Assembly (NCBI GenBank): GCA_038058285.1
Contig: JBBUBJ010000006.1
Coordinates: 8,683-45,982, forward strand
Source of the DNA: Patescibacteria group bacterium
Lineage (GTDB): Bacteria > Patescibacteriota > Minisyncoccia > Phycocordibacterales > WO2-35-19
Length of the DNA: 37,300 bases
Reading direction: 5' to 3'
The notes under the pieces were generated by a model that was not told the origin of the DNA, did not search any database, and was given only the letters and a program-made list of their open reading frames with translations. Position numbers and translations under genes: made by a program. Of the stretch, positions 425 through 37,027 are shown in pieces; the stretch's first letter is position 1, and every line of letters starts with the position of its first letter.

Positions 425-1162
425 TTATATTTCCTCATCCAAATCATTTGGTTCAAACCCGACATCCAATGTAGGGCTGAAATCTGGGTTAAAAGATAGC
501 CACTCAAAAACTTCTTTTTTAAATATTTTAGGATTATCAAAATATTCTGGGAAATCTTTTTTTGAAAGAATTTTATTTTGTTCTCTTCCTTTTCCGCAAT
601 AATCTTGATAACTACTCCATTCGTAATTTTCCAAAAACTTTTTTGCTTTTTCAACATCTTTTATTCCGTTTTCTTTCCACTTTGAATCAATAAGTTTAAC
701 TGGATTTAGATGAATATAAGAAAAAATATATTTTGAGTATGGATCGGTGTCTATATAAGAGCTCTTGAAATTTGTTTCAAAAAGTCCGCCAGTACGTTTA
801 TATTTTGTATTAAAATATTTTGAGTATGATATGCAGAGTTTTTTCATAAAAAGACTAACCTGATCTAACCCGACATTGGATGTAGGGCTGGGTGTTAGAG
901 TTGTTAAAATGTGAAAATGATTTGGCATAAGTGCCCAAGCACCGATTGAAACGATTGGCTTTCCTTTATCAAACTCCCAAGCATCTATTTTTCTTTTAAC
1001 AATATCATCTCTAAAATTTATTCGTTTTTTAGAATTGGAAAGATACAACATTTTTACAAAACGACTTCTATCTTGATCATCTAGGAAAATATTTTGTTTG
1101 CTATTTCCCCTGTTATAAAGATGATAGAACTCACCTTCCACAAAATTTTCTTTTCTTTGCAT
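425..1162 (-). CDS. IS200/IS605-family Y1 (HUH) transposase-like protein, RAYT-like (copy 1)
   Basis: Motifs: N-terminal GEFYHLYNRGN, HUH motif MPNHFHIL, C-terminal YIHLNP with Tyr. Paralogous to 36377..37027. Two copies of the family F palindrome sit in-frame inside the ORF. Confidence 0.8.
   Translation of the reverse strand: MQRKENFVEGEFYHLYNRGNSKQNIFLDDQDRSRFVKMLYLSNSKKRINFRDDIVKRKIDAWEFDKGKPIVSIGAWALMPNHFHILTTLTPSPTSNVGLDQVSLFMKKLCISYSKYFNTKYKRTGGLFETNFKSSYIDTDPYSKYIFSYIHLNPVKLIDSKWKENGIKDVEKAKKFLENYEWSSYQDYCGKGREQNKILSKKDFPEYFDNPKIFKKEVFEWLSFNPDFSPTLDVGFEPNDLDEEI
457..478. repeat. Family F palindrome, copy 1 (CCCGACAT-CCA-ATGTAGGG)
   Basis: Imperfect 8-bp arms around a 3-nt loop. It is the exact reverse complement of 1205-1222. 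Read in-frame as ...SPTLDVGFEP... at the transposase C-terminus. Confidence 0.75.
867..890. repeat. Family F palindrome, copy 2 (CCCGACAT-TGG-ATGTAGGG)
   Basis: Same arms as copy 1 but the loop is complemented (TGG versus CCA). Read in-frame as ...SPTSNVGLD..., 6 residues after the HUH motif. Confidence 0.75.
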
Positions 1163-5089: not shown

Positions 5090-5110
5090 GAAAAATGGAG
5101 GTGTTCCAGT

Positions 5111-5482
5111 ATGCTTACTCGAGCTGCTATGAATCGCAGTTTAGGATTACCGCGTGCCCCTGGATCTTGTTTCGGAGTTTCCGATCCAAGATATTTACGG
5201 CCCAACTTCAACAGAAGTCCGCTTCCGTTGCCACAAGCGACCAACAAAAACAAGGCCACGATTACCACCAGATTTTATATTCTGGAATGGTGGAAGAAAA
5301 ACTTCGAGCCAGAACACAGGTCTTTTAGGGCCAAAAACAATGGCCTGGCTGTCATCAAAGCGATGCGCATTCTCGGCATCAAAGGGAAATTGACTGGTCA
5401 CAAGCTCCGCAAAGCCGGAGCGAGCAGAGTTTCTCTCCTCAGCTTTAGCGATGGGGAGATTTTCCCGGGACCCAAGCAGTGA
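5111..5482 (+). CDS. Hypothetical basic protein (orphan); coding status uncertain
   Basis: GGAGGTG lies 7 nt before the ATG, a promoter lies upstream and a terminator downstream. However, the G+C-rich stretch is open in several frames on both strands and the N-terminal half is low-complexity (R/P/S/L-rich). Confidence 0.35.
   Translation: MLTRAAMNRSLGLPRAPGSCFGVSDPRYLRPNFNRSPLPLPQATNKNKATITTRFYILEWWKKNFEPEHRSFRAKNNGLAVIKAMRILGIKGKLTGHKLRKAGASRVSLLSFSDGEIFPGPKQ
5434..5459 (+). repeat. Family C hairpin (stem TCTCC/GGAGA around AGCTTTAGCGA)
   Basis: TCTCCTC-AGCTTTAGCGA-TGGGGAGA. Same loop as 7349-7374 and 12463-12490 but with a different stem. Confidence 0.5.
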
Positions 5483-5501
5483 TCATTTGGTTGGAATAAT
5501 G

Positions 5502-5536
5502 GCGGGCAGGATTCATTCTTGTCCGCTTTGTTTTTT
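5502..5536 (+). terminator. Rho-independent terminator after 5111..5482
   Basis: Stem GCGGGCAGG / CTTGTCCGC (two G-U pairs), followed by TTTGTTTTTT. Confidence 0.6.
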
Positions 5537-7155: not shown

Positions 7156-8276
7156 TTTTCTATTATACCACCACCAAGACAAATTTCATTGTCATACAAA
7201 ACCAAAGATTGTCCCGCCGAAACTCCCATTTGTGGTTTGTCAAACTCAACCAACAAGGATGACCCTTGTTGGTTAGGTTTTTGTGGTGTAATTTTGCATG
7301 GAATTTTTTCTTGGCGGTATCTTGTACGACAAAATAATTTTTCTTTAGTCCCGCGAAGCTTTAGCGAAGTGGGATTTATCCAATTTATTTCTGAAATTTC
7401 AAGTGTCAAGGGTCCCCCTTGGCTTTTTGAGTATGGTGTAATTTTGGGAGCGACAGTTATAGTGTTTTTTGAAATGTCTTTAGAAACAACATACAAAGGC
7501 ATTTCATTTTCTGATTTTTTGGTGACAGTGAATCCATGACGTTCGCCTATTGTAAAAAATAAAGCTCCGTTGTGGTGACCTATTTTTTTTCCTTCTAAAT
7601 CCAAAACATCTCCTCTTTTTGTTGGCATATATTGAGCTAAAAATTCTTTCATATCTATTTTACCCAAAAAACAAAGTCCTTGGCTGTCTTTTCTTGTCGC
7701 CTGTGGCAAGCCAAATTTTTCCGCCAACTTTCGTACTTTTGGTTTTTGCAAATGACCTATGGGAAATAAAATATGTTCGAGTTGTTTCTGTGTTAATGTC
7801 CACAAAAAATATGATTGGTCTTTGTTTTTGTCGGCTCCTTCCATTAACCCCACCCTGCCCTCCCCTTGATCAGAGGAGGCAACCGTACGAGCATAATGGC
7901 CAGTAGCAACATATTGAGCGCCATTTTTAAGAGCAAATTTGAGAAAGTGGCCGAATTTTATTTCTTTATTGCACATTACATCAGGATTAGGTGTTCTCCC
8001 TTTTTTATATTCGGCAATCATATAGTCAACCACTTCTTTTTTATATTCTTTTTCCAAGTCAAGAGTAATAAAAGGAATATCCAAAACTGCCGCCACTCTC
8101 ATAGCGCTTCTTCTATCTTCTTTCCAAGTGCAAGGATAACTCGGCGGAGTCCACGCTTTTATAAAAACTCCTGTCACATCATAACTTTCCTTCTTCAGCA
8201 ATGCCGCCGACACAGCGCTATCTACGCCTCCAGAAAGCCCCACATAAACTTTCTTTTTTACTGATTGACTTTTCAT
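7152..8276 (-). CDS. mnmA: tRNA 2-thiouridine(34) synthase MnmA
   Basis: PP-loop SGGVDS, KDQSYFL, TRYRQ and the C-terminal GQS.VLY pattern. Contains family A, B, C and D repeats in-frame. Confidence 0.9.
   Translation of the reverse strand: MKSQSVKKKVYVGLSGGVDSAVSAALLKKESYDVTGVFIKAWTPPSYPCTWKEDRRSAMRVAAVLDIPFITLDLEKEYKKEVVDYMIAEYKKGRTPNPDVMCNKEIKFGHFLKFALKNGAQYVATGHYARTVASSDQGEGRVGLMEGADKNKDQSYFLWTLTQKQLEHILFPIGHLQKPKVRKLAEKFGLPQATRKDSQGLCFLGKIDMKEFLAQYMPTKRGDVLDLEGKKIGHHNGALFFTIGERHGFTVTKKSENEMPLYVVSKDISKNTITVAPKITPYSKSQGGPLTLEISEINWINPTSLKLRGTKEKLFCRTRYRQEKIPCKITPQKPNQQGSSLLVEFDKPQMGVSAGQSLVLYDNEICLGGGIIEK
7248..7295 (+). repeat. Family A hairpin + tail, solo copy inside mnmA
   Basis: AACCAACAAGG-ATGAC-CCTTGTTGGTT + AGGTTTTTGTGGTGTAATTTT. 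Near-identical to 37031-37078. It is 48 nt long and is read on the minus strand as KITPQKPNQQGSSLLV. Confidence 0.85.
7349..7374 (+). repeat. Family C hairpin inside mnmA
   Basis: TCCCGC-GA-AGCTTTAGCGA-A-GTGGGA. Read on the minus strand as PTSLKLRG. Confidence 0.7.
7401..7445 (+). repeat. Family B hairpin + tail inside mnmA
   Basis: AAGTGTCAAGGGTCCCCCTTGGCTTTTTGAGTATGGTGTAATTTT. It is 45 nt long and is read as KITPYSKSQGGPLTL. Near-identical to 12561-12605. Confidence 0.85.
7848..7880 (-). repeat. Family D (short, degenerate) inside mnmA
   Basis: CCCCACCCTGCCCTCCCCTTGATCAGAGGAGGC compared with 14729-14773 (CCCCACCCC...GCCCTCCCCTTGTTCAGGGGAGGG). Read as SDQGEGRVG. Confidence 0.55.
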
Positions 8277-8313
8277 AATGGCTTATGTTATTATATTTTT
8301 GGAGGTGTAGCAA

Positions 8314-8673
8314 ATGCGAATTGTAGTTGTTTTACAGACGGATTTTCAAAAAGATGACGTTGGCGAAAAGATGGGGGCTCTTTTGAGTCTTCTTAACACC
8401 CTCGAGGTTGAATCAAAAAAACTTGCCATTCAAATGCCGTCGGGGGATGACTCGGTACTAAAGATAGATGTTCTGGATTCCCGTGAAGTTGATGGCGGGT
8501 CTGTGGAAAGTTTCAAATCACTTGTCCGTTTTGGCGGCGCGGTTCATGAAAGATGTGTTGAGTTCACTGCTCCAGACGGCTATAGGGATCCCTATTTCTC
8601 CGTTGATGGGAGAAAAGTAACATCTGGAGAGGTCTTTAGCGAGGTCTTCGGGACAGTGTTAGAAAAATTCTGA
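8314..8673 (+). CDS. Hypothetical acidic protein (orphan)
   Basis: GGAGGTG (8301-8307) lies 6 nt before the ATG and a strong terminator follows. Looks G+C-richer than its neighbours by eye. I recognise no motif. Confidence 0.5.
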   Translation: MRIVVVLQTDFQKDDVGEKMGALLSLLNTLEVESKKLAIQMPSGDDSVLKIDVLDSREVDGGSVESFKSLVRFGGAVHERCVEFTAPDGYRDPYFSVDGRKVTSGEVFSEVFGTVLEKF

Positions 8674-8686
8674 GCCGGCTGAACCA

Positions 8687-8723
8687 GCCCCCTCCGTGTG
8701 TATACCGGAGGGGCGCTTTTTTT
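8687..8723 (+). terminator. Rho-independent terminator after 8314..8673
   Basis: Stem CCCCTCCG (8689-8696) / CGGAGGGG (8706-8713), followed by CGCTTTTTTT. Confidence 0.65.
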
Positions 8724-14888: not shown

Positions 14889-15561
14889 AAACACTCTCTA
14901 TTATTTTTGTTCTTTCCCAATCAGTGGGAACAATGGCGACAATTCTTTTATTTTCAATATCAATCTGAAAAACCATATCCTTTAATTTCCATCCACGAAT
15001 AACTCCTACCTGTTCAAACTGAGTTTTTAATTCGTTCATTTTATGTTCCGCCTCGTTCATAAGAGTTGCAACATCTTCGTCTGAGTACCCTTTTTCTTTA
15101 AGATTTAAGGTATCTCGTTCAGACCAGCGGATACCGGGTATTCGTTCCATAACAATAATATGTGTTCCTCCTTGTTCTGCTTTGGCAACCGGTTTTGCGG
15201 CGGGTAATCCCATTTGAGCAAGCCGTTCAAGAATTTTATACTCATAAAAATGATCTCCTGATTTACCAACATCTCCTTTGGTAAAATTTACTCGTCTAGC
15301 AACAGTTAAAATTTCTTGATTTTCTGGATTTTTCCAAACAGGTAAATCTTTGACAGCAGTTGGGTCTTCTCGAACTTTTCCCGTTTCATCAACTTTCTTT
15401 TCTCCTGTTTTTATGTTCTTTCCTTCTCTCTCAAAATATCCCGTTGGGTCATCAAGAAATTCTTGAGGCACAAAATTAACAAATTCAGTCTCAACTTCTA
15501 CTTTGGGAATGGGAGTGATTTCTTGAATATTATTTTGTGGATTTGGGGAACTTTCCATCAT
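14887..15561 (-). CDS. Hypothetical protein with weak protein-kinase-like (RIO/Kdo-type) pattern
   Basis: The ORF overlaps the hicA stop by 4 nt. EYKILERLAQMGLPAAKP...HIIVMERIPG resembles the kinase alphaC/hinge, but the catalytic-loop position reads GVIRGWKLKD rather than HGDL..N. Confidence 0.5.
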   Translation of the reverse strand: MMESSPNPQNNIQEITPIPKVEVETEFVNFVPQEFLDDPTGYFEREGKNIKTGEKKVDETGKVREDPTAVKDLPVWKNPENQEILTVARRVNFTKGDVGKSGDHFYEYKILERLAQMGLPAAKPVAKAEQGGTHIIVMERIPGIRWSERDTLNLKEKGYSDEDVATLMNEAEHKMNELKTQFEQVGVIRGWKLKDMVFQIDIENKRIVAIVPTDWERTKIIESV

Positions 15562-15797
15562 TTAATTATTTTTCTTAAGAATTCTTCTCTATCTATTTCT
15601 GCCAAGTCCAGTACCCCTTGAAGAGTACCTATCGCCAATTCCTTATGATTAGGAACTATTGTAGTGATTTTTCTGCCAGCGACAATTTTCTGACATTTAA
15701 TGTGACTACCCCTTTGTTTAATTACAGAAAAGCCAAAATATTTAATTAAAATTTTTACTACTTCCTTACTCCCAAGTATTTTTCTTTTTTTAGGCAT
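15558..15797 (-). CDS. hicA: HicA-family toxin (YcfA-like mRNA interferase)
   Basis: GFSVIKQRGSHIKC...TIVPNHKELAIGTLQGVL matches the HicA GSH / VP.H / GTL pattern. 79 aa. Confidence 0.8.
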   Translation of the reverse strand: MPKKRKILGSKEVVKILIKYFGFSVIKQRGSHIKCQKIVAGRKITTIVPNHKELAIGTLQGVLDLAEIDREEFLRKIIK

Positions 15798-16008
15798 AAC
15801 TTACTTCAAAAGATGTAATAATTGAAGCTTCCGGAGAAATATTTTTAGTTGCCTCTTCGTTGTCTTCAAGATAAAGTTCAACCGCTTCTTTCAAATTTTC
15901 TGTTGCTTCTTCTATAGTTTTTCCTTGACTGACAACACCAAGCTCAAGGCATTTTGCAACATACCATTTCCCCTCCTTATTTATTGCTGTAGTAAATGTT
16001 TTAGTCAT
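15790..16008 (-). CDS. hicB: HicB-family antitoxin (UPF0150 fold, no DNA-binding extension)
   Basis: EGKWYVAKCLELGVVSQGKTIEEATENLKEAVELYLE is the typical HicB N-domain pattern. Overlaps hicA by 8 nt. Confidence 0.75.
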   Translation of the reverse strand: MTKTFTTAINKEGKWYVAKCLELGVVSQGKTIEEATENLKEAVELYLEDNEEATKNISPEASIITSFEVSYA

Positions 16009-24002: not shown

Positions 24003-24037
24003 GAAAAAGGAACGATCTTTGGCATAAGGAGGCCATT

Positions 24038-25438
24038 ATGGAGTTTCCAAAAATAATTCAAGGTGGTATGGGAGTCATTATTTCCGGTCCACCTCTTGCA
24101 AAAGAGGTTTCAAGGCTGGGACAACTGGGAACCGTTTCCGGAGTAGCGTTTGAAAGAATTTTTGCACGCATACTTCAGAGAGGTGATCCGGGTGGGCAAA
24201 TTAGGCATGCTCTTTCTCACTTTCCTTTTCAGGAATATGTAAAAAGAGTAATGGATGCATTTTTTGTGGAAGGGGGAAAATTCGAAAGCACAGCTTTTAA
24301 AGCGGTGCCGATTTTCAACATCAACCCCTCCCCTCTTCTGATTTCGCTGACTATTTGTGCTAATTTTGCTCTGGTGTGGTTGGCTAAAGAAGGGCACACC
24401 AATCCCGTGAGCATTAACTACTTAGAAAAAGTAGCTATGCCCCACATCTACGCCATCACCGGTGCTATGTTGGCCAGTGTTGACTTTATCACCATGGGCG
24501 CTGGCATACCACTTCAAATTCCTGAAGTGATTAACGCTGTTGCCGAAGGCAGAACGGTGACCTACCGTGTGCCGGTTATCGGGGAAAATATAACAAGCCA
24601 CGAGATGAGTTTTAATCCCGAGCAATTTTTTGGAGGCAAACTGCCCTCAATGAAAAGACCGGGGTTTATTCCCATCATAGCTTCAAATCTTTTGGCTAAA
24701 ATTCTTGTTGAAAGATTACCAGAAGGAAGCATCTATGGTTTTGTAATTGAAGAGCCAACTGCTGGCGGACACAATGCTCCCCCCAGAAGAGGTGGTTTTT
24801 ATGGTCCAAAGGACGAAGTGGACTACCCCAAAATTGCAAGCATTGGTTTGCCTTTTTGGATTGGAGGATCTAAAGCTTCCCCGGAAATGCTCGAATGGGC
24901 ATTTTCAGTTGGTGCCAAGGGTATCCAAGTCGGCTCCATTTTTGCTCTTTGTGAAGAGTCCGGAATGGATCCTAAAATCCGGGCAGAAATTCGTAAGTTA
25001 GGATTTCAAGGAAAACTCAAAATCAGAACCGATATGAGATTTTCTCCGGCTGGTTTTCCGTTTAAGGTGGTTGAATTGCTCGGCACACTTTCTGAACCCG
25101 AAGTTATTAAGTCTCGGGTTCGCAGATGCGACCAGGGTGCGTTAGCTACTCTTTATGAAAAACCAGATGGGCTCATCGGCTATCGTTGTCCAGCTGAGTC
25201 GACGGAATGCTTTATTTCCAAAGGTGGAGATGTGGCAGACACTTTCAGTAGAGGTTGTCTCTGTAATGGTCTGATTTCTGCCGCTGGGTTTGGCAATAAA
25301 GAAGAACCACTAGTGGTTACACTTGGAGACGACACTTCTTTTCTGCCATTCTTGATGTATAGTCCAAATGGTTCATACAGCGCCGAAGATGCTGTGGACT
25401 ATTTACTAAGCCAAATCACCCTCGCTAGTGGAGGGTGA
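24038..25438 (+). CDS. Nitronate monooxygenase / 2-nitropropane dioxygenase-family FMN enzyme (long form)
   Basis: N-terminal IIQGGMGV...S...LA..VS..G.LG..S pattern, then internal GAGIP and EEPTAGGH. SD is AAGGAGG. Looks G+C-richer than its neighbours by eye. Confidence 0.7.
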   Translation: MEFPKIIQGGMGVIISGPPLAKEVSRLGQLGTVSGVAFERIFARILQRGDPGGQIRHALSHFPFQEYVKRVMDAFFVEGGKFESTAFKAVPIFNINPSPLLISLTICANFALVWLAKEGHTNPVSINYLEKVAMPHIYAITGAMLASVDFITMGAGIPLQIPEVINAVAEGRTVTYRVPVIGENITSHEMSFNPEQFFGGKLPSMKRPGFIPIIASNLLAKILVERLPEGSIYGFVIEEPTAGGHNAPPRRGGFYGPKDEVDYPKIASIGLPFWIGGSKASPEMLEWAFSVGAKGIQVGSIFALCEESGMDPKIRAEIRKLGFQGKLKIRTDMRFSPAGFPFKVVELLGTLSEPEVIKSRVRRCDQGALATLYEKPDGLIGYRCPAESTECFISKGGDVADTFSRGCLCNGLISAAGFGNKEEPLVVTLGDDTSFLPFLMYSPNGSYSAEDAVDYLLSQITLASGG

Positions 25439-26472: not shown

Positions 26473-27111
26473 CTACTGTTCCCTTTTACCCCACCTTTTT
26501 CTCCCAAGCATTGCCTGATGGGGTTTTTTGCCTTCCGCTCGGAGGGCAGCGTATCTCTTTTCTCTTTTTTTGCGGATAGGCTGAATATATTTAATGGCCT
26601 CTTCGGGCAATCCATAATCCCAGCTCCTGAACCTATTCTTTCCGCCGGTATGCAACTCTTTGCGATCACATTTCCAAAACCTTTGCTTGAGAGCTCGGCC
26701 TCGGACAATGTTCATAAAATTTTTGCATTCCGGACAAAGCGGGCGATGCCTCACCTTCCAGCAGGCAATTCTAGCCTGCATCAAAAGATTTTGGATAAAA
26801 TTCTTGGTTCTGTGCATGGGATGGGAAAAATACAAAACCTTATCCCTCTCGGCAATCAAAACCCAGCCGGCATCTTCTTCTCTGGCCATTTGTTGTTCTT
26901 CAAGCCAAGTGGTCCAAACCAGCACAGTGTACTGGTTGGCGTAAAAAAGATATCCAAGCTCTCTGCCAAAACGAGGCCGAGGGGCCTTAAGCCCCAATCT
27001 TCTAAATTGCAAAGAGAATTCCGAGCTTGAAATCTTGCGAAATCCCCTCTTCTTTAATTCCCCTTCGAATTCCAAGAAACTCTTGACATTAGGCAAACAC
27101 TTTTCTGGCAA
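26473..27111 (-). CDS. Hypothetical protein with putative zinc ribbon and basic C-terminal tail (orphan)
   Basis: TTG start at 27111 with GGAGG 5 nt upstream. A TTGCTA-N17-TATAAA promoter and a terminator bracket it. CPEC...KC.....H motif and a K/R-rich C-terminus. Looks G+C-rich by eye. Confidence 0.6.
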   Translation of the reverse strand: MPEKCLPNVKSFLEFEGELKKRGFRKISSSEFSLQFRRLGLKAPRPRFGRELGYLFYANQYTVLVWTTWLEEQQMAREEDAGWVLIAERDKVLYFSHPMHRTKNFIQNLLMQARIACWKVRHRPLCPECKNFMNIVRGRALKQRFWKCDRKELHTGGKNRFRSWDYGLPEEAIKYIQPIRKKREKRYAALRAEGKKPHQAMLGRKRWGKREQ

Positions 27112-27141
27112 GGAAACCTCCTTTTCTACATTCTGTCATCA

Positions 27142-27809: not shown

Positions 27810-27853
27810 GAATTAAAAAAGAAGAAGAAAAAGAAGGGGCGTTAGAACGCCCC
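27810..27853 (-). terminator. Rho-independent terminator overlapping the stop of 27842..28594
   Basis: GGGGCGTT-AG-AACGCCCC (27836-27853), followed on the minus strand by TTCTTTTTCTTCTTCTTTTTT. Confidence 0.65.
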
Positions 27854-28594
27854 TGTGTTGCTTAAAATCTCGCTTGAATCGCCGACAAGAACGAATTGTC
27901 CCGAAAAACAAACCGGTTCTCTTTTGGAAAGAAGCACGCGGCGCGCTTTCTGATCAACTTCGTATTGAGCATCAAGAATGCCGAAGTAATCAAGAAAGCG
28001 ATTTAACTTGGCGGATGTTCTAATGCAACCCTTGGAACCCACTTTACCGAGTCGCGACTCGCTGTCAGGATCGATTGCATGCAAGAGTAAGCGAATCAAA
28101 TACGGGTGGCCCTTGGTTGTATGAGTCTTTACCCAACCAAAATCCCACACTCGACTACCTTTGACGCCAAGTCCCCGCCAACCCCTTGAGTTTTTTGTGC
28201 CGAGAGCTCGGTAACTCATATTTCCCGGCAAGTTTTCTAAAAAACCAAGGGGGGTAACAAAGTGGCCTCTGCGGGCATAATTGCCAGTGGAGACTTTATC
28301 TGCTCCGATAATGGTCAAGCGATCGTCTAATGGATCAACGAAAATCAAAACAGCAAGCTGGACAGAAGGGTTTCTATCCACAAACAAAACATACTGCGGT
28401 GATTTAATTACCGGATCCAGATTTAGGGCGGCATTCACTCTTAAAAAAACAACCTTCTGATACTCATCTGTCAGAGGAATTTCTCCGACTCGTTGCAAAA
28501 ATTGTTTTTGCATATAACTCACTTCTTCACATTTGTTTTCTGCTAACAATATGCTAGACAAAATAACAAAAAGAACCGCAATAATCTTTACCAT
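27842..28594 (-). CDS. Secreted L,D-transpeptidase-family protein (YkuD domain)
   Basis: N-terminal signal-like helix. Catalytic motif LHAIDPDSESRLGKVGSKGCIRTS (His...Ser-x-Gly-Cys-Ile-Arg). SD is AAAGGAG. Confidence 0.7.
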   Translation of the reverse strand: MVKIIAVLFVILSSILLAENKCEEVSYMQKQFLQRVGEIPLTDEYQKVVFLRVNAALNLDPVIKSPQYVLFVDRNPSVQLAVLIFVDPLDDRLTIIGADKVSTGNYARRGHFVTPLGFLENLPGNMSYRALGTKNSRGWRGLGVKGSRVWDFGWVKTHTTKGHPYLIRLLLHAIDPDSESRLGKVGSKGCIRTSAKLNRFLDYFGILDAQYEVDQKARRVLLSKREPVCFSGQFVLVGDSSEILSNTGAF

Positions 28595-28662
28595 ACTTCT
28601 CCTTTCTTCTGCTCACTACCCTATCATTTTAATTCCTTTTTTTCAAACAAGTTTTATTCGGG

Positions 28663-29772: not shown

Positions 29773-29786
29773 GGAATCATAATAAC

Positions 29787-29865
29787 TCACCCTACCCTCT
29801 CTTACAACAAGAGAGGGTTTCTGAAACCCCCTTCCCTTGTTAAGGGAAGGGGGTTGGGGGATGAG
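29787..29865. repeat. Inverted pair of family D elements between dnaX and ddl
   Basis: Left element: CTCACCCTA + CCCTCTCTT-ACAAC-AAGAGAGGG (29795-29817). Right element: CCCCCTTCCCTT-GTT-AAGGGAAGGGGG (29827-29853) + TTGGGGGATGAG. The tails point outward. Confidence 0.75.
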
Positions 29866-29874
29866 TTATCTTGG

Positions 29875-30971: not shown

Positions 30972-31058
30972 GTTACGCAAAAAAGCGTCAGATGGATTGT
31001 AGCAAAATTATAATGATTTAACCATTAGTGTTTTCTAATCCTAGAATGATACTGAGGT

Positions 31059-31646
31059 CTATTGCGCTAACGCAGCCGCCACATTTACCAATCCATATCC
31101 ATATTGGTTGTCGCGACTAGCAGTTCCCAACTCTTGGGCAGTGGAGTTCATTATTGCTCTTACTTCGTCATTAATGCGTCTGTTGAGGTTAGTATCTCTA
31201 ACCCCCGTTGCTATAACAAGTGCCGCAACACCTGCGACATGAGGCGAGGCCATTGAAGTGCCGGAACCGTATTTGTAGCAACCGCCATCCGAGCGATTGC
31301 ATTTCGGTTGTGGAGTAGAGTAACTGGTATTATCGTTCCATGTTGAATATACAGACACCCCTGGTGCTACCAGTTCCACCTTGGGACCGGTGCTTGAGAA
31401 GCTTGCGCGTTTATTGGTAGAATCAATGGCGCCAACGGCAATCACTGAATCAAATTTTGCCGGATAAATAACATTGTCTCCCGTGCCTGCGCCGATGCGC
31501 TTCACACCCCATGAATTATCAAGTTCAGCATCAGTGGCATATACAGTATCATCAAGGTCAATAGAGGCAACATGCGGATTGCGAGACAATCCCTCAATAG
31601 CTTTAGCTGGTATCGTAGCGGCGATAGCGTCCACAATTTTTTTCAT
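31059..31646 (-). pseudogene. Subtilisin-like (S8) protease remnant lacking the Asp/His part of the catalytic core
   Basis: It keeps the end of an I9-type propeptide (AIEGLSRNPHVASIDLDDTVYA), WGVKRIGA, the VIAVGA..D....RASFSS.GP..E..APG block and GTSMASPHVAG. The D-T-G and H-G-T-H regions between them are absent. There is no signal peptide and no SD. Confidence 0.6.
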
Positions 31647-31664
31647 AGAATTAATCTTTATTAT

Positions 31665-32372
31665 TTAATAATTATCTGCCACAAATCTCTTACCTTTAAA
31701 AAGTAGCCACAACGCGCCCACTAAAATTACCAGTTCGGACCAAAAGTCCCATTGGAACCACCATTGGCTAAGCAGTTCTATTCTGGTAAATCTGGAATAA
31801 TATCCCCCGGTCGGGTCTATGTTAAAGAATAAAAACGAGAAATGTCCAAGCATTAAAAACGCCGTAAATATTACTCCGCCGATTAGTATAAGCTTATAGC
31901 TTCTTGATATTTGCGGGGCTGACTTTGTCAGAAACAAGATGCCAAACAACAAAGCTAAAACTGTTGTATCCGTACTGTGAACATTAAGAAAGTCCCATAA
32001 AAGTTGTGGCCAAACATGAATGTTGCCGGTTCCAAGAGGAAGTTCAAAACTCTTCATTCCAAAAACAGAATATCCGTCTTTGTATGGTAGCCAAATCTCC
32101 TGAACAACAATCATTGTTATTATAATCAGAAAAAGAAAAGCTCCCGCTAAAATCCATTTCCAATTCGTGTCTCTTTTCAAATTCAAGCTTGGCCTGAATA
32201 TTTCGTATGCCAAGCCGGCAAGAATAACAAGAAAGCCAATCCACGGAGGACCGTAACTTATTGACGGAACATCTCCCAAATTTATTTTCGTCCATGTAGG
32301 CATCCAAAGTAATAGCAATAAAACTATCACAAAGAAAATAAACGCAAAAATACGATTTGAAGCATTGCTCAT
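31665..32372 (-). CDS. Multi-pass membrane protein (6-7 helices)
   Basis: 235-aa ORF dominated by hydrophobic helices and rich in Trp/Phe. Confidence 0.7.
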   Translation of the reverse strand: MSNASNRIFAFIFFVIVLLLLLWMPTWTKINLGDVPSISYGPPWIGFLVILAGLAYEIFRPSLNLKRDTNWKWILAGAFLFLIIITMIVVQEIWLPYKDGYSVFGMKSFELPLGTGNIHVWPQLLWDFLNVHSTDTTVLALLFGILFLTKSAPQISRSYKLILIGGVIFTAFLMLGHFSFLFFNIDPTGGYYSRFTRIELLSQWWFQWDFWSELVILVGALWLLFKGKRFVADNY

Positions 32373-32504
32373 ATTTTTTAATTATATCAAAATTTGATAT
32401 ACTATGTCCACCAAATTTGATTTATAGACGAAGGTTGATTTTCTTTTTATTTTGCAGTACTGTAATCTTAGATTCAAAAAATCCTTAATCAATGGAGGTG
32501 CGCA

Positions 32505-32861
32505 ATGAGATGTATTAAAGGGCTACGCGACATTAATACCCACGGCACGCTTGCCAGAGAAGGGCGATTGGTGGGTGTCGCAAGAGATTTGCATCGAATC
32601 GAAAGAAGAAGCGGATTTTCGGGAAATGAGTCCTGGAATGGGAGTGTTGATAACATGGTGTTTAAGAAAAGCGCAAAGACGCAAAGACTCCCCCATGATT
32701 TATTCCAAGAACTCGTCTTAAAGAAGAAGATTCAAAACGCGCTAGTTCAACAAATTCAAGAGTCCATTGCCGAAATGGAAATGTTTGCGGGCGAAGGAGT
32801 AGCCGGGGCTCTTGCCGAGCTTCAACGTCTCGGAACGAAACTCTCACGATTAGTAAAGTGA
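32505..32861 (+). CDS. Hypothetical protein with helical/coiled-coil C-terminus (orphan)
   Basis: GGAGGTG (32494-32500) lies before the ATG and a perfect 14-bp terminator stem follows. Looks G+C-rich by eye. Confidence 0.5.
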   Translation: MRCIKGLRDINTHGTLAREGRLVGVARDLHRIERRSGFSGNESWNGSVDNMVFKKSAKTQRLPHDLFQELVLKKKIQNALVQQIQESIAEMEMFAGEGVAGALAELQRLGTKLSRLVK

Positions 32862-32883
32862 GGGTATGCGAGGGTGCGATATC

Positions 32884-32920
32884 ATCCGCATGGACAAGTT
32901 TGTCCATGCGGATTTATTTG
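32884..32920 (+). terminator. Rho-independent terminator after 32505..32861
   Basis: ATCCGCATGGACAA (32884-32897) / TTGTCCATGCGGAT (32900-32913), followed by TTATTTG. Confidence 0.7.
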
Positions 32921-32986
32921 ATATTTTAATGCGTGTATAGTAGTCTATTCAGCGGAGTATTTGACATCACAATGGAGGATAGATGA

Positions 32987-33589
32987 GTGCGGATACTGTA
33001 TTATGTACCGATCATCCATACGTCTGAAGAGTATGGTGTTTTGAGTTCGGCAATAAGACAGGCATTCATATGCCGTCTTGGCGAGAAAGTATTTGAGAAG
33101 TTTCAAGAGGAAATTTGTGCATACTGGCGGCTTGTTGAAGCGCGGATCAAAAAAACAGTGCACGATTTTGATGGGCTCATAATCTATCAGGATAGTTTCC
33201 CGGTTGGTTCGCGAGAGAAGGTTTTGGAGTTTTTTGGCCACCTGTTTCGAGATCATCCTCAAAAAAGCCCCAATTTCAATCTGGTGAAAAAATTGTTGGA
33301 CAAAGGAGCGATTCTCGAAGGCACAGAGGATATGAATCTCGTCTTGGAGCAAATGAAGGTCTATCAACTTGTCTCCGAGGCCTCCTCGCCGTTAGAACAA
33401 AATAGAATTCTAGCAGAAAACGCAACACATGCAAGGGAAGTTATGCGAAAACGCGACGTGTTTATTGCCCAGAGAATATGTGTCACTCTTCCTGGGGATG
33501 GACGAGGAATTCTGTTCATCGGAAGAGATCATGATGTCACAGGTGAGCTCGCGAAACTTCCAGAAAAAATTCGCATCATTTCCCTTTAA
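32987..33589 (+). CDS. Hypothetical protein, possibly Tiki/TraB/PrgY/GumN-superfamily-like (orphan)
   Basis: GTG start with GGAGGA 7 nt upstream, and a terminator follows. The ordered motifs YVPIIHT ... EGTED ... RKRDVFIAQRI ... LFIGRDHDV resemble the GT.H / E / R.R...M / GAGH signature of that superfamily. This is from memory only. Confidence 0.5.
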   Translation: MRILYYVPIIHTSEEYGVLSSAIRQAFICRLGEKVFEKFQEEICAYWRLVEARIKKTVHDFDGLIIYQDSFPVGSREKVLEFFGHLFRDHPQKSPNFNLVKKLLDKGAILEGTEDMNLVLEQMKVYQLVSEASSPLEQNRILAENATHAREVMRKRDVFIAQRICVTLPGDGRGILFIGRDHDVTGELAKLPEKIRIISL

Positions 33590-33596
33590 GATAAAA

Positions 33597-33628
33597 GCCC
33601 TGCAACAAGAAAGCAGGGCCTCTTTTTT
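33597..33628 (+). terminator. Rho-independent terminator after 32987..33589
   Basis: GCCCTGC (33597-33603) / GCAGGGC (33613-33619), followed by CTCTTTTTT. Confidence 0.65.
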
Positions 33629-33659
33629 ATTTCAATATTTTCTATTCTTTATCTCATAG

Positions 33660-33688
33660 TTGACAAATACTTAATCGCGTATTAATTT
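33660..33688 (+). promoter_or_regulatory. Sigma70-like promoter TTGACA-N17-TAATTT
   Basis: Consensus -35 at 33660-33665 and -10 at 33683-33688. GGAGA and TTG 33708 lie downstream. Confidence 0.45.
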
Positions 33689-33707
33689 AATATCGGAGAT
33701 TAAAACA

Positions 33708-34145
33708 TTGGCACAAGATGACAGACCATATGACCCACTAGAAATCTCTTATCGGGAGAACGAAAGCTGGCGCGACCGCATACAGCGTATCACCAACAAC
33801 TTGTTTTTAGATTTCATGGTGAATAAAGATGGCGATACGTACTTTATCGCGCTTATCAAAATGGCTTGGGGAATCGACGCGGTGAACGAACCTTATAGCA
33901 AACATTGCCCGAATTCTACCACCGCCAGTACTAAGAGAATGGGTCAGAGTGAACGCGAGTTCTTTAATGAAGTCAAGCAAATCGCAGAAGAAGTCGGAGG
34001 TTCTCTTGGAGAAGTACAAAATGCGGTTCGTGAATGGCGGACAAAACGCACCGAAGAAGCTGCTAAGATATGTTGCGAGTTACTTGTTCAGATTTACGCT
34101 TGTCTTCGGGAGAAAGGCTATTCAATAGCCGACCTTCGAAGATAA
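33708..34145 (+). CDS. Hypothetical helical protein (orphan)
   Basis: TTG start with GGAGA 8 nt upstream. Its own promoter and terminator bracket it. Looks G+C-rich by eye. Confidence 0.5.
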   Translation: MAQDDRPYDPLEISYRENESWRDRIQRITNNLFLDFMVNKDGDTYFIALIKMAWGIDAVNEPYSKHCPNSTTASTKRMGQSEREFFNEVKQIAEEVGGSLGEVQNAVREWRTKRTEEAAKICCELLVQIYACLREKGYSIADLRR

Positions 34146-34153
34146 GAGCAGTC

Positions 34154-34190
34154 CAGCCCACCTGAAACATGGTGGGCTGAATTATTTTAC
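34154..34190 (+). terminator. Rho-independent terminator after 33708..34145
   Basis: CAGCCCACC (34154-34162) / GGTGGGCTG (34171-34179), followed by AATTATTTT. Confidence 0.6.
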
Positions 34191-34230
34191 AAAAAACAAA
34201 TCCCGTTCCGATGGTCGTTGGAACGGGATT
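34190..34230 (-). terminator. Rho-independent terminator of the 34229..34348 micro-ORF
   Basis: AATCCCGTTCC...GGAACGGGATT stem (34199-34230), followed on the minus strand by TGTTTTTT. The hairpin resembles the one at 37098-37124. Confidence 0.6.
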
Positions 34231-34348
34231 AATTGCAGTAAAAACAATAAAACATTCTTTTTCCACCTATTTCCACTTCCTGGACTTCATCCTTTAGAGT
34301 TCTGATTATCCTGCGAGAATCTGGTCTCATGCGAAAAAGCTGGGGCAT
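34229..34348 (-). CDS. Candidate 39-aa small protein (below the ORF-track size cutoff)
   Basis: ATG 34348 is preceded by GAGGAGG at 8 nt. Translation: MPQLFRMRPDSRRIIRTLKDEVQEVEIGGKRMFYCFYCN. The stop lies inside a terminator hairpin. Divergent from hisS. Confidence 0.45.
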   Translation of the reverse strand: MPQLFRMRPDSRRIIRTLKDEVQEVEIGGKRMFYCFYCN

Positions 34349-34422
34349 AATATCTTCCTCCTCTTTATATAAAATAGCTCTTATTGTAAAAATAAGCAAG
34401 TTTGTTTATAATATAAAACAAG

Positions 34423-36321: not shown

Positions 36322-36372
36322 AATCAAACCAACAAAGATGACCTTTGTGGTTTGATTAGTGTGGTATAATTT
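36322..36372 (+). repeat. Family A hairpin + tail, left flank of transposase-like gene
   Basis: AATCAAACCAACAAAG-ATGAC-CTTTGTGGTTTGATT + AGTGTGGTATAATTTT. The stem carries a compensatory A-T pair where other copies have G-C. Confidence 0.8.
36362..36370 (+). promoter_or_regulatory. Extended -10 box TGGTATAAT formed by the repeat tail, 6 nt before ATG 36377
   Basis: TGGTATAAT-TTTGAT-ATG. No SD is possible. Confidence 0.5.
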
Positions 36373-36376
36373 TGAT

Positions 36377-37027
36377 ATGAAAAATAGGGATTATAAAAAT
36401 TTTGCTAAGGGAGAAATTTATCATGTTTATAATAGAGGGGTGAATAAAGCAGATATTTTTAAGACTCAGAAAGATTATGAGGTTTTTCTATCCCGTTTAA
36501 AAGAAAATTTATTTCCTGAATTTGTAGATAAAAAGAAATTATCTTGGTTGGAAAAACGCAGAAAATTACTTCCCCCAAACTCTTTTGATTTAATATGTTA
36601 TTGTCTTATGCCGAATCATTTTCATTTACTTATTCAACAAAAAACAGATTTACCCATAACCAAATTAATATCTAAAATATGTACAAGTTATGCAATATGT
36701 TTTAACAAAAAACATGGGAGAGTTGGGGCGGTTTTTCAGGACCAATTTAAGGCTGTATTAGTTGAAAACAATGAACAACTTTTATGGACATCTTATTATA
36801 TTCATAAAAACCCAACAGAAGCAGATATTGTAATAAATCTCAAAGATTATAAATGGGGCAGCTATTCGGAATATTTTGATAAGGAAAATAGTTTTAAATT
36901 ATGTAAAAAAGATATTATTACTAAACAGTTTAATTCCGAAAAGCAATATTTAAAGTATTTTGATGATAAAGAAAATGATGAAATGACTTCTTTGAGAGAT
37001 TTTTATTTTGATTTTAGCGAGGATTAA
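36377..37027 (+). CDS. IS200/IS605-family Y1 (HUH) transposase-like protein, RAYT-like (copy 2)
   Basis: GEIYHVYNRGVNK, HUH motif MPNHFHLL, YIHKNP with Tyr. I prefer the ATG at 36377 because the GTG at 36359 in the ORF track lies inside the repeat. Confidence 0.8.
   Translation: MKNRDYKNFAKGEIYHVYNRGVNKADIFKTQKDYEVFLSRLKENLFPEFVDKKKLSWLEKRRKLLPPNSFDLICYCLMPNHFHLLIQQKTDLPITKLISKICTSYAICFNKKHGRVGAVFQDQFKAVLVENNEQLLWTSYYIHKNPTEADIVINLKDYKWGSYSEYFDKENSFKLCKKDIITKQFNSEKQYLKYFDDKENDEMTSLRDFYFDFSED

Follow-up and report, generated by a model that had tools for sequence, protein, structure and literature searches.

Shine-Dalgarno-like boxes precede a class of accessory genes in a Patescibacteria genome whose relatives lack the anti-Shine-Dalgarno motif

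Introduction

The Shine-Dalgarno (SD) box is a textbook signal defined by its RNA partner, the CCUCC-bearing anti-SD tail of 16S rRNA. Here we report on ten open reading frames (ORFs), each led by an SD-like box, in a 37,300-nt stretch of the genome of a Patescibacteria group bacterium (GCA_038058285.1, contig JBBUBJ010000006.1, positions 8,683 to 45,982; hereafter the window). In the order to which this genome belongs, as far as it was sampled, the partner is gone, yet the box persists at the right spacing before a coherent class of genes. Among described systems, the genomes that GeneMarkS-2 assigns to its group C (e.g. Actinobacteria and Deinococcus) likewise combine two start models, leaderless and SD, with a promoter box at a fixed short distance in many genes and an SD in others; unlike the present case, they have a normal anti-SD, and their split does not run between core and accessory genes. 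Phage morons and small genomic islets, together with the amelioration model of acquired genes, provide a second comparison. Like these, the units described below are stand-alone promoter-gene-terminator units of atypical composition that lie between conserved genes, are absent from siblings and in some cases adjoin a tRNA gene; they differ in that none of 23 proteins matched PHROGs, no integrase adjoins them, and the 466-aa family that was followed shows no drift to host composition.

On the side of the host, Tsurumaki et al. (2022, RNA 28:1041, PMC9297842) described a subgroup of Parcubacteria with neither the anti-SD motif nor the ribosomal protein uL1. Our genus agrees with that subgroup in the CCUCC-less 16S tail of the relatives and in the absence of uL1 from five of five genus genomes, whereas the accessible text of that paper does not contain the word 'leaderless' and mentions no class of genes that keeps the SD. 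A second study (PMC10783764) defined an 'SD-scarce, no CCUCC' class, including Campbellbacteria, Wolfebacteria, SR1 and Peribacter, with an SD use of 2-7%, comparable to the approximately 4% found here. In its accessible text, where 'horizontal' does not occur, the residual SD is taken as background, whereas here it marks a defined and positionally sharp class of accessory genes. According to the introduction of the same paper, Bacteroidota initiate independently of the SD while rpsU keeps a strong regulatory SD. There, too, SD use is confined to a few genes in an otherwise SD-indifferent genome; however, the anti-SD of Bacteroidota is present but sequestered, only one gene, for a conserved ribosomal protein, bears the SD, and bS21 was not found in five genomes of our genus. 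In the literature library searched, we found no description of SD-led genes in anti-SD-less genomes of the candidate phyla radiation and, incidental mentions aside, no paper that treats leaderless starts as a trait of Parcubacteria or Patescibacteria.

Results and discussion

The exemplar and its counterparts in the window

The exemplar is a 119-aa ORF of GC 0.45 at 8314..8673 (plus strand, like all of its signals). It is preceded by a promoter-like site at 8265..8294 (TTGACT and TATTAT separated by 18 nt, TG before the -10, 10 of 12 consensus matches) and by an SD-like box, GGAGGTG, at 8301..8307, 6 nt before the ATG. Since the -10 box ends 6 nt before the SD-like box, the transcript would start at about 8300-8302 and its leader would begin about at the box. 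An intrinsic-terminator-like hairpin (8689..8723; 8-bp G+C-rich stem plus seven T, -23.9 kcal/mol) abuts the stop codon of the convergent mltG. Among 5.8 billion proteins only three corresponded to the exemplar (100, 96 and 73% identity), i.e. two relatives, and the reading frame stays open at 73% identity with mostly conservative changes. In other runs the stop codon TGA reads TGC (8673 A>C) and position 8677 is A, extending the ORF by three codons, which matches the 122-aa relatives. No credible match was found in 16 genus siblings and 24 further relatives, the single weak one being probably spurious, and Pfam, PHROGs and the protein atlas gave no match that would point to a function; the AlphaFold model has a mean pLDDT of 45. 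Two metagenome scans for the DNA of the 73%-identical relative returned nothing and only the identical copy, respectively.

The sequence-only reading of the window, on which this work follows up, had listed this ORF and nine others as G+C-richer, terminator-bearing orphans expressed by a grammar other than that of the host genes. A purine-rich box was indeed present 4-8 nt before the start codon of all ten, although that of the ORF at 33708 is only a weak GGAGA, and three of the ten, about whose strand nothing had been said, lie on the minus strand (26473..27111, 27842..28594 and 34229..34348). Their higher G+C content was borne out, with a mean GC of 0.450 and a mean G+C at third codon positions (GC3) of 0.441 compared with 0.368 and 0.317 for the window's remaining 31 ORFs (Mann-Whitney p = 8e-5 and 4e-5). 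A hairpin (-14 to -27 kcal/mol) with a T-run directly follows seven of the nine longer ORFs, but none follows those at 24038 and 27842. The term orphan applies to the ORF at 8314, whereas those at 24038, 27842, 32987 and 5111 have relatives. Of the housekeeping genes said to have no purine-rich box, alaS, leuS, mnmA, ychF, hisS and the M16 peptidase gene were found without one, and the starts of pgi and ddl are uncertain. Paralogy among the small ORFs was considered and rejected, since six of the SD-led proteins of the window are only 17-21% identical and thus unlike each other; a phage origin was likewise rejected, with 0 of 23 proteins matching PHROGs.

A separate class of ORFs in three species

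The genome under study (G000; window at C6:8683-45982) is assembled in 39 contigs of 438,576 bases in total and is rated 75% complete. Two sibling species, G012 (508,602 bases) and G003 (622,413 bases), were fetched whole, and the ORFs of the three genomes were compared by tblastn. Gene starts came from a simple purpose-made ORF caller that takes the longest-ORF start, scores ORFs by codon log-odds and then admits the remaining ORFs where gaps are left, and an ORF was counted as SD-led if GGAGG, AGGAG or GAGGT ended 3-12 nt before its start.

SD-led ORFs numbered 21 of 543 in G000, 20 of 672 in G012 and 26 of 654 in G003. Only 4/21, 6/20 and 11/26 of them (19%, 30% and 42%) were conserved in a sibling, compared with 374/522, 469/652 and 424/628 (72%, 72% and 67%) of the other ORFs (Fisher p = 1.5e-6, 1.6e-4 and 0.010). 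Their GC was 0.430, 0.439 and 0.445, against 0.34-0.40 for the remaining ORFs, and both their composition and their codon score are atypical for the host. Terminator-like sites lie 3' of 7/21, 9/20 and 15/26 SD-led ORFs but of only 30/417, 39/548 and 71/552 others. When the three genomes were pooled, the 3' end of the box clustered at -9..-4 in the 581 non-conserved ORFs (68 motif hits vs approximately 3-4 per 3-nt bin elsewhere), whereas control motifs of the same composition were flat and the 1288 conserved ORFs had no box peak. With a canonical anti-SD probe, a duplex energy of -7 kcal/mol or lower was reached by 29 of 450 G000 ORFs (6.4%), against 4.9% at intragenic control sites, and the 16 strongest SD ORFs by duplex energy had a mean GC of 0.419 vs about 0.35. 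As the sequence-only reading would have it genome-wide, SD strength, G+C content and non-conservation covary in all three species, which as kin do not amount to independent tests, and the SD-led ORFs form a separate class, G+C-richer, supplied with terminators and rarely common to sibling species.

If the boxes were no more than chance runs of purines in DNA of higher G+C content, or if the ORFs were not genes, this class would be an artefact of chance or annotation. Some of the ORFs do score low by host codon usage (-3.2 for 5111..5482 and 5.4 for 26473..27111), and low-GC core genes carry chance boxes that are not conserved. Such an artefact would, however, have to produce the sharp positional peak alongside flat controls of the same composition, the terminators 3' of stop codons, homologs of conserved length and an exemplar frame open at 73% identity, and we consider it highly improbable.

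Two SD-led ORFs of G003 deserve a record of their own. One encodes an additional, 372-aa alaS-like paralog of GC 0.485 (L113:184-1302), the other a DUF397 protein (L121:11975-12190), a family that we take to be mainly actinobacterial.

Leaderless-type starts of conserved genes

Conserved genes have a different signal. The distance from the end of a -10-like hexamer to the start is exactly 6 nt in 64 (G000), 50 (G012) and 52 (G003) first-pass ORFs, compared with about 5-28 at other distances. A strict -10 box at 5-8 nt was found in 115 of 431 first-pass ORFs, and in 65 of 221 ORFs that have an upstream region of their own. The -10 box at the start is the single dominant signal of the conserved genes, not demonstrated for the majority of genes. 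A spacing of 6 nt would place the transcript start at the A of the ATG, which suggests that the conserved genes give rise to leaderless mRNAs.

The conserved gene ftsA (G000:C22:15597-16769 = L128:5598-6770; G012:C6) has the same box context, ending in AAAATGGAGGCTT directly before the ATG, in both G000 and G012, and GGAAAGG in G003. The box common to G000 and G012 means that at least one core gene carries a conserved SD-like box.

The 16S tail and the missing partner

Six of the 16 genus siblings have a 16S gene in their assembly, and after helix 45 all six read GGAATATTTCAAGGTG; in an Infernal alignment, GGAATATTTCAAGG stands at the place of the consensus GGAUCACCUCCUU. CCTCC was found at its canonical place in none of 22 readable tails (6 from the genus, 4 from other genera of the family and 12 from other families of the order; three more loci have no anchor). 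The tail GGAATATTTCAAGGTG was identical in ten of ten genomes of the family, which suggests that it is the mature, selected tail. Neither CCUCC nor CUCCU occurs as a conserved internal motif in 13 16S genes of the order. uL1 (PF00687) was detected in none of five genus genomes, two of which are rated 100% complete, and in 14 of 14 controls, whereas a short S1-like protein was present in all five. bS21 was not detected in these five genomes either, but the control revealed this protein in only 6 of 14. The missing CCUCC and the missing uL1 together assign the genus to the published anti-SD-less, uL1-less subgroup of Parcubacteria, and the part of the finding that concerns the host has thus been published before. 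Of the two parts of a classical SD:anti-SD system, the purine-rich box 4-12 nt before the start is present and the CCUCC tail, by sibling proxy, is absent. In a lineage whose 16S has no CCUCC, classical pairing would be unavailable.

Ordinary SD pairing would still operate if a second, unassembled 16S gene with a canonical tail, or some other RNA, supplied CCUCC. The 16S of G000 is indeed unassembled, as it is in all but 6 of the 16 genus sibling assemblies; one sibling (G013) has CCTCC 15 nt past the canonical place, and 23S and other RNAs lie outside the scan. Against a hidden classical partner stand the 22 readable tails of the order, all without CCTCC at the canonical place, the tail identical across the ten family genomes, the 13 16S genes without a conserved internal CCUCC, and the conserved genes, which show no SD. 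We therefore regard such a partner as very unlikely, somewhat less so than an artefact.

In L026-L055 and further 16S loci, the sequence that replaces the anti-SD could form a small hairpin with a stem of 4-5 bp and a 3-nt loop, a structure predicted to be weak (0 to -5 kcal/mol). Its arms vary by family (TTTCA/TGAAA, TTCC/GGAA, TCCA/TGGA), which hints at covariation. In the 16S genes of G013 (L029) and G021 (L042), the 5' and 3' anchors lie about 2.4-2.5 kb apart, compared with about 1.5 kb elsewhere, and both genes probably carry insertions.

Variable slots and patchy families

Comparison of DNA synteny with the 16 genus siblings revealed, among the best matches listed, a conserved backbone with variable slots, and the SD-led ORFs occupy slots that are empty in most siblings. 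In the slot of the exemplar, the spacer between mnmA and mltG is short in 11 siblings (21-113 nt) and longer in three (527-585 nt), which hold different small ORFs in the same orientation; some of the ORFs filling this slot carry boxes of their own. Homology among the slot-filling ORFs of G004, G016 and G007 was not established (BLASTP E 0.04-0.9, with only a weak shared C-terminal pattern). At the site of the ORF at 5111, the spacer between the genes for a uracil-DNA glycosylase (UDG) and a PD-(D/E)XK protein is 11-30 nt in five siblings and larger in three. A variable island at 30972..34422, from tRNA-Ala to hisS, comprises an S8 peptidase fragment, a 235-aa ORF and four SD-led ORFs; the distance from ddl to hisS is 121 nt in G011 vs 3.5 kb in G000, and the insert begins at tRNA-Ala. 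Two variable regions in all adjoin tRNA genes. The units thus resemble islets in that their composition is atypical and that close relatives lack them while retaining intact flanks, whereas no mobility or phage genes were found beside the inserts: PHROGs matched 0 of 23 proteins, the Pfam hits to mobility genes were limited to IS200-like genes at the ends of the window, and no integrase adjoins. The S8 (subtilase) ORF at 31059-31646 matches only the C-terminal positions 159-288 of the 288 in the Pfam profile and is probably a gene fragment.

Five SD-led ORFs were searched by sequence beyond the 90%-identity cluster. Four of them belong to rare, patchy families, three of which include Patescibacteria names. 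The 250-aa ORF falls into a divergent L,D-transpeptidase-like family of 204 homologs, members of which a profile search detected in 3 out of 400 class genomes; a single-protein search, which is insensitive and no evidence of absence, retrieved the gene from none of 200 genomes of the order and none of 400 of the phylum. The 200-aa ORF has 87 homologs, of which the few with a source name are Patescibacteria, and its family is likewise present in 3 of 400 class genomes by profile search. The 123-aa ORF has 12 relatives of 41-68% identity among 1.84 billion representatives. Relatives of the 466-aa ORF (56-69% identity) were located in ten loci, eight titled as Patescibacteria lineages or 'bacterium', one as Saccharibacteria and one as Ignavibacteria, and within the genus the gene was seen in 2 of 16 siblings among the DNA matches listed. 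Rare and patchy families with mainly Patescibacteria names make the cassettes look like members of a sparse, mobile gene pool of Patescibacteria.

A rival explanation is that the boxes are relics, i.e. that the cassettes are recent imports from SD-using donors, probably anti-SD-bearing Patescibacteria, in which the box is idle and survives by youth or re-seeding, its conservation reflecting selection in the donor pool. In favor of this explanation, the majority of SD-led ORFs are specific to one species, searches of 16 genus siblings did not find the exemplar, 11 of the 14 siblings in which its slot could be assessed have it empty, composition and codon score are atypical, and the island adjoins tRNA-Ala. 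The orthologs of the SD-led genes bear on this explanation.

Retention of the box in orthologs

Within the genus, the 466-aa gene has AAGGAGG in G004 and AAAGGAG in G015, the latter in the same typA-SWIB context as in G000. In ten other Patescibacteria loci of this gene, a GAAAGGAG-type box lies 5-7 nt before the start in seven, and GAAAGGAA occurs in one. Four of these loci have their flanking genes in common, and there the box is present at a protein identity of 71-83%; the 16S genes of these four syntenic carriers, and of three further carriers, are without CCTCC. A box kept in syntenic orthologs of anti-SD-less genomes looks maintained. The GC of the 466-aa gene exceeds that of its flanks in nine of ten loci, so that no amelioration is seen there. 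The G014 ortholog of the 212-aa ORF retains GAGGAGGTG together with the TTG start, and the box of the 250-aa gene is present in three of three class homologs. By our own tally, genus orthologs retain the box for 6 of 8 G+C-richer SD genes (28-81% identity) vs 0 of 9 low-GC genes with chance boxes. Once within genus orthologs, the form of the box changes from AAAGGAG to GGAGGTG at the same start.

In one pair of positional orthologs (L073:15176-15592 in G012 and G000:C27:6711-7088), the proteins are only 31% identical, yet the 20-nt leaders are nearly identical (GGAAATAGAAAGGA, then G or A, then TTCG), i.e. the leader is better conserved than the coding part.

These observations run against the relic explanation, in that the box is kept both in genus orthologs and in syntenic orthologs of anti-SD-less genomes, it survives a change of form at one and the same start, the GC of the 466-aa gene remains higher than that of the flanks in nine of ten loci, and the anti-SD is missing across the whole order sampled, so that its loss would be far older than the box-keeping orthologs. 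Three further points support the relic explanation: a pair of HIT-family genes in which the box is replaced by a leaderless promoter at lower GC, a class genome with the 250-aa family that has a CTCCTT tail, and an Ignavibacteria-labelled genome with a canonical 16S tail that carries a 68%-identical 466-aa gene with AAAGGAGG. On balance, we consider it rather unlikely that the boxes are relics, though the explanation is still viable, chiefly for true orphans, the exemplar among them. The first suggestion of the sequence-only reading, recent import from SD-using donors, accordingly accounts for the empty slots but is inadequate in general, given the box kept in the genus and in syntenic anti-SD-less orthologs and the GC above the flanks in nine of ten loci. 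Its second suggestion, a regulatory class that is translated differently, fits better.

If the box is maintained without an anti-SD, leadered mRNAs would use a box-dependent route whose reader is not the 16S tail. Under the reading that we prefer, two gene-expression layouts coexist in one genome. In the first, conserved genes have no SD, and at least a quarter of them have a -10 box 6 nt before the start, from which they would be transcribed into leaderless mRNAs. In the second, approximately 4% of the ORFs form self-contained cassettes, in which a promoter and a short leader bearing a GGAGG-type box precede an ORF of higher G+C content that in many cases ends in an intrinsic terminator. Such cassettes carry accessory genes that would enter by exchange within the flexible gene pool of Patescibacteria and settle in variable slots between syntenic core genes and beside tRNA genes, and their box would be maintained in the anti-SD-less host and not be a decaying leftover. 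That the cassettes stem from gene exchange among Patescibacteria, with a box maintained in the anti-SD-less host and a reader other than the 16S tail, seems to us an evenly balanced proposition. More tentatively, we propose that the GGAGG-type box may be a working initiation signal in anti-SD-less Patescibacteria, read by a protein or another RNA, with two routes of initiation, leaderless for the core and box-led for the flexible genes.

Several points weigh against this proposal. The G000 assembly has no 16S gene, and its tail is that of its siblings by proxy; no candidate reader of the box was found in a scan that covered the interior of the 16S. The longest-ORF rule introduces start errors that blur both the SD and the -10 signals. 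Leaderless starts and translation of the cassettes are predicted from sequence, and the RNA contigs are too thin to bear on them: two metatranscriptome runs gave contigs of depth about 2 for core genes, for part of the 466-aa gene and, in the exemplar, for the 3' end, and such libraries may contain DNA. Two of the ten loci of the 466-aa gene are clearly without a box, and among three distant loci of the 200-aa family only one or two have it. A partial anti-SD, CTCCTT, is present in one of the class genomes with a homolog of the 250-aa gene, which indicates that anti-SD-bearing donors exist. Of the HIT-family pair, the G003 gene (GC 0.41) is box-led and the G000 gene (GC 0.32) has a TATAAT of leaderless type, as amelioration of an import predicts. 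Finally, retention rests on few families, and at 72-77% DNA identity a motif of 6-7 nt could be kept by chance in about one case in five.

Either outcome would be informative. If the box is read, ribosomes would be recruited to leadered mRNAs in a way not yet described, and resident and flexible genes would be expressed separately. An unread box would serve as a clock and tracer of gene flow from anti-SD-bearing to anti-SD-less Patescibacteria. In practice, gene callers need two start models for these genomes, in which the SD-led ORFs are the easiest to miss or to mis-start.

Other features of the window

The remaining SD-led ORFs of the window are arranged as follows. On the plus strand, an AAGGAG box at 153-158 lies 7 nt before the ATG of a 69-aa ORF (166-375, GC 0.467) that is followed by a hairpin and T-run, and a GGAGGTG box at 5097-5103 lies 7 nt before the 123-aa ORF (5111-5482, GC 0.495), whose terminator is at 5501-5527. 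The 466-aa ORF (24038-25438, GC 0.453), with an AAGGAGG box at 24026-24032 and a spacing of 5 nt, has a marginal NMO-like Pfam match and no clear terminator. The minus strand carries the 212-aa ORF with a TTG start (26473..27111, GC 0.457; AAGGAGG at 27117-27123, 5 nt; hairpin and T-run), the 250-aa L,D-transpeptidase-like ORF (27842..28594, GC 0.438; AAAGGAG at 28599-28605, 4 nt) and a 39-aa ORF (34229-34348; GAGGAGG at 34357-34363, 8 nt). Within the island, three further ORFs lie on the plus strand: a 118-aa ORF (32505-32861, GC 0.462) with GGAGGTG at 32494-32500, a spacing of 4 nt and a strong hairpin with a T-run; the 200-aa ORF with a GTG start (32987-33589, GC 0.439), GGAGGA at 32974-32979, a spacing of 7 nt and a terminator 3'; and a 145-aa ORF with a TTG start (33708-34145, GC 0.452), the weak GGAGA at 33695-33699, a spacing of 8 nt and a hairpin 3'.

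The window as a whole has a G+C content of about 0.37. Its housekeeping set by Pfam consists of alaS, the M16 peptidase gene, the UDG gene, mnmA, mltG/YceG, leuS, ychF, a ROK kinase gene, pgi, typA, dnaX, ddl and hisS, and relatives of one window gene are titled Paceibacterota and other Patescibacteria. Pfam also identified a HicA/HicB pair at 15558-16008 and two IS200/Y1-transposase-like genes, one at each end of the window (425-1162 and 36359-37027). Between dnaX and ddl, a double-hairpin element of about 95 nt is located at 29775-29872 (-61.7 kcal/mol over 125 nt). Copies of it at 88-96% identity occur at several sites in many genus siblings, and one more is present in G000 (C29:6541-6636).

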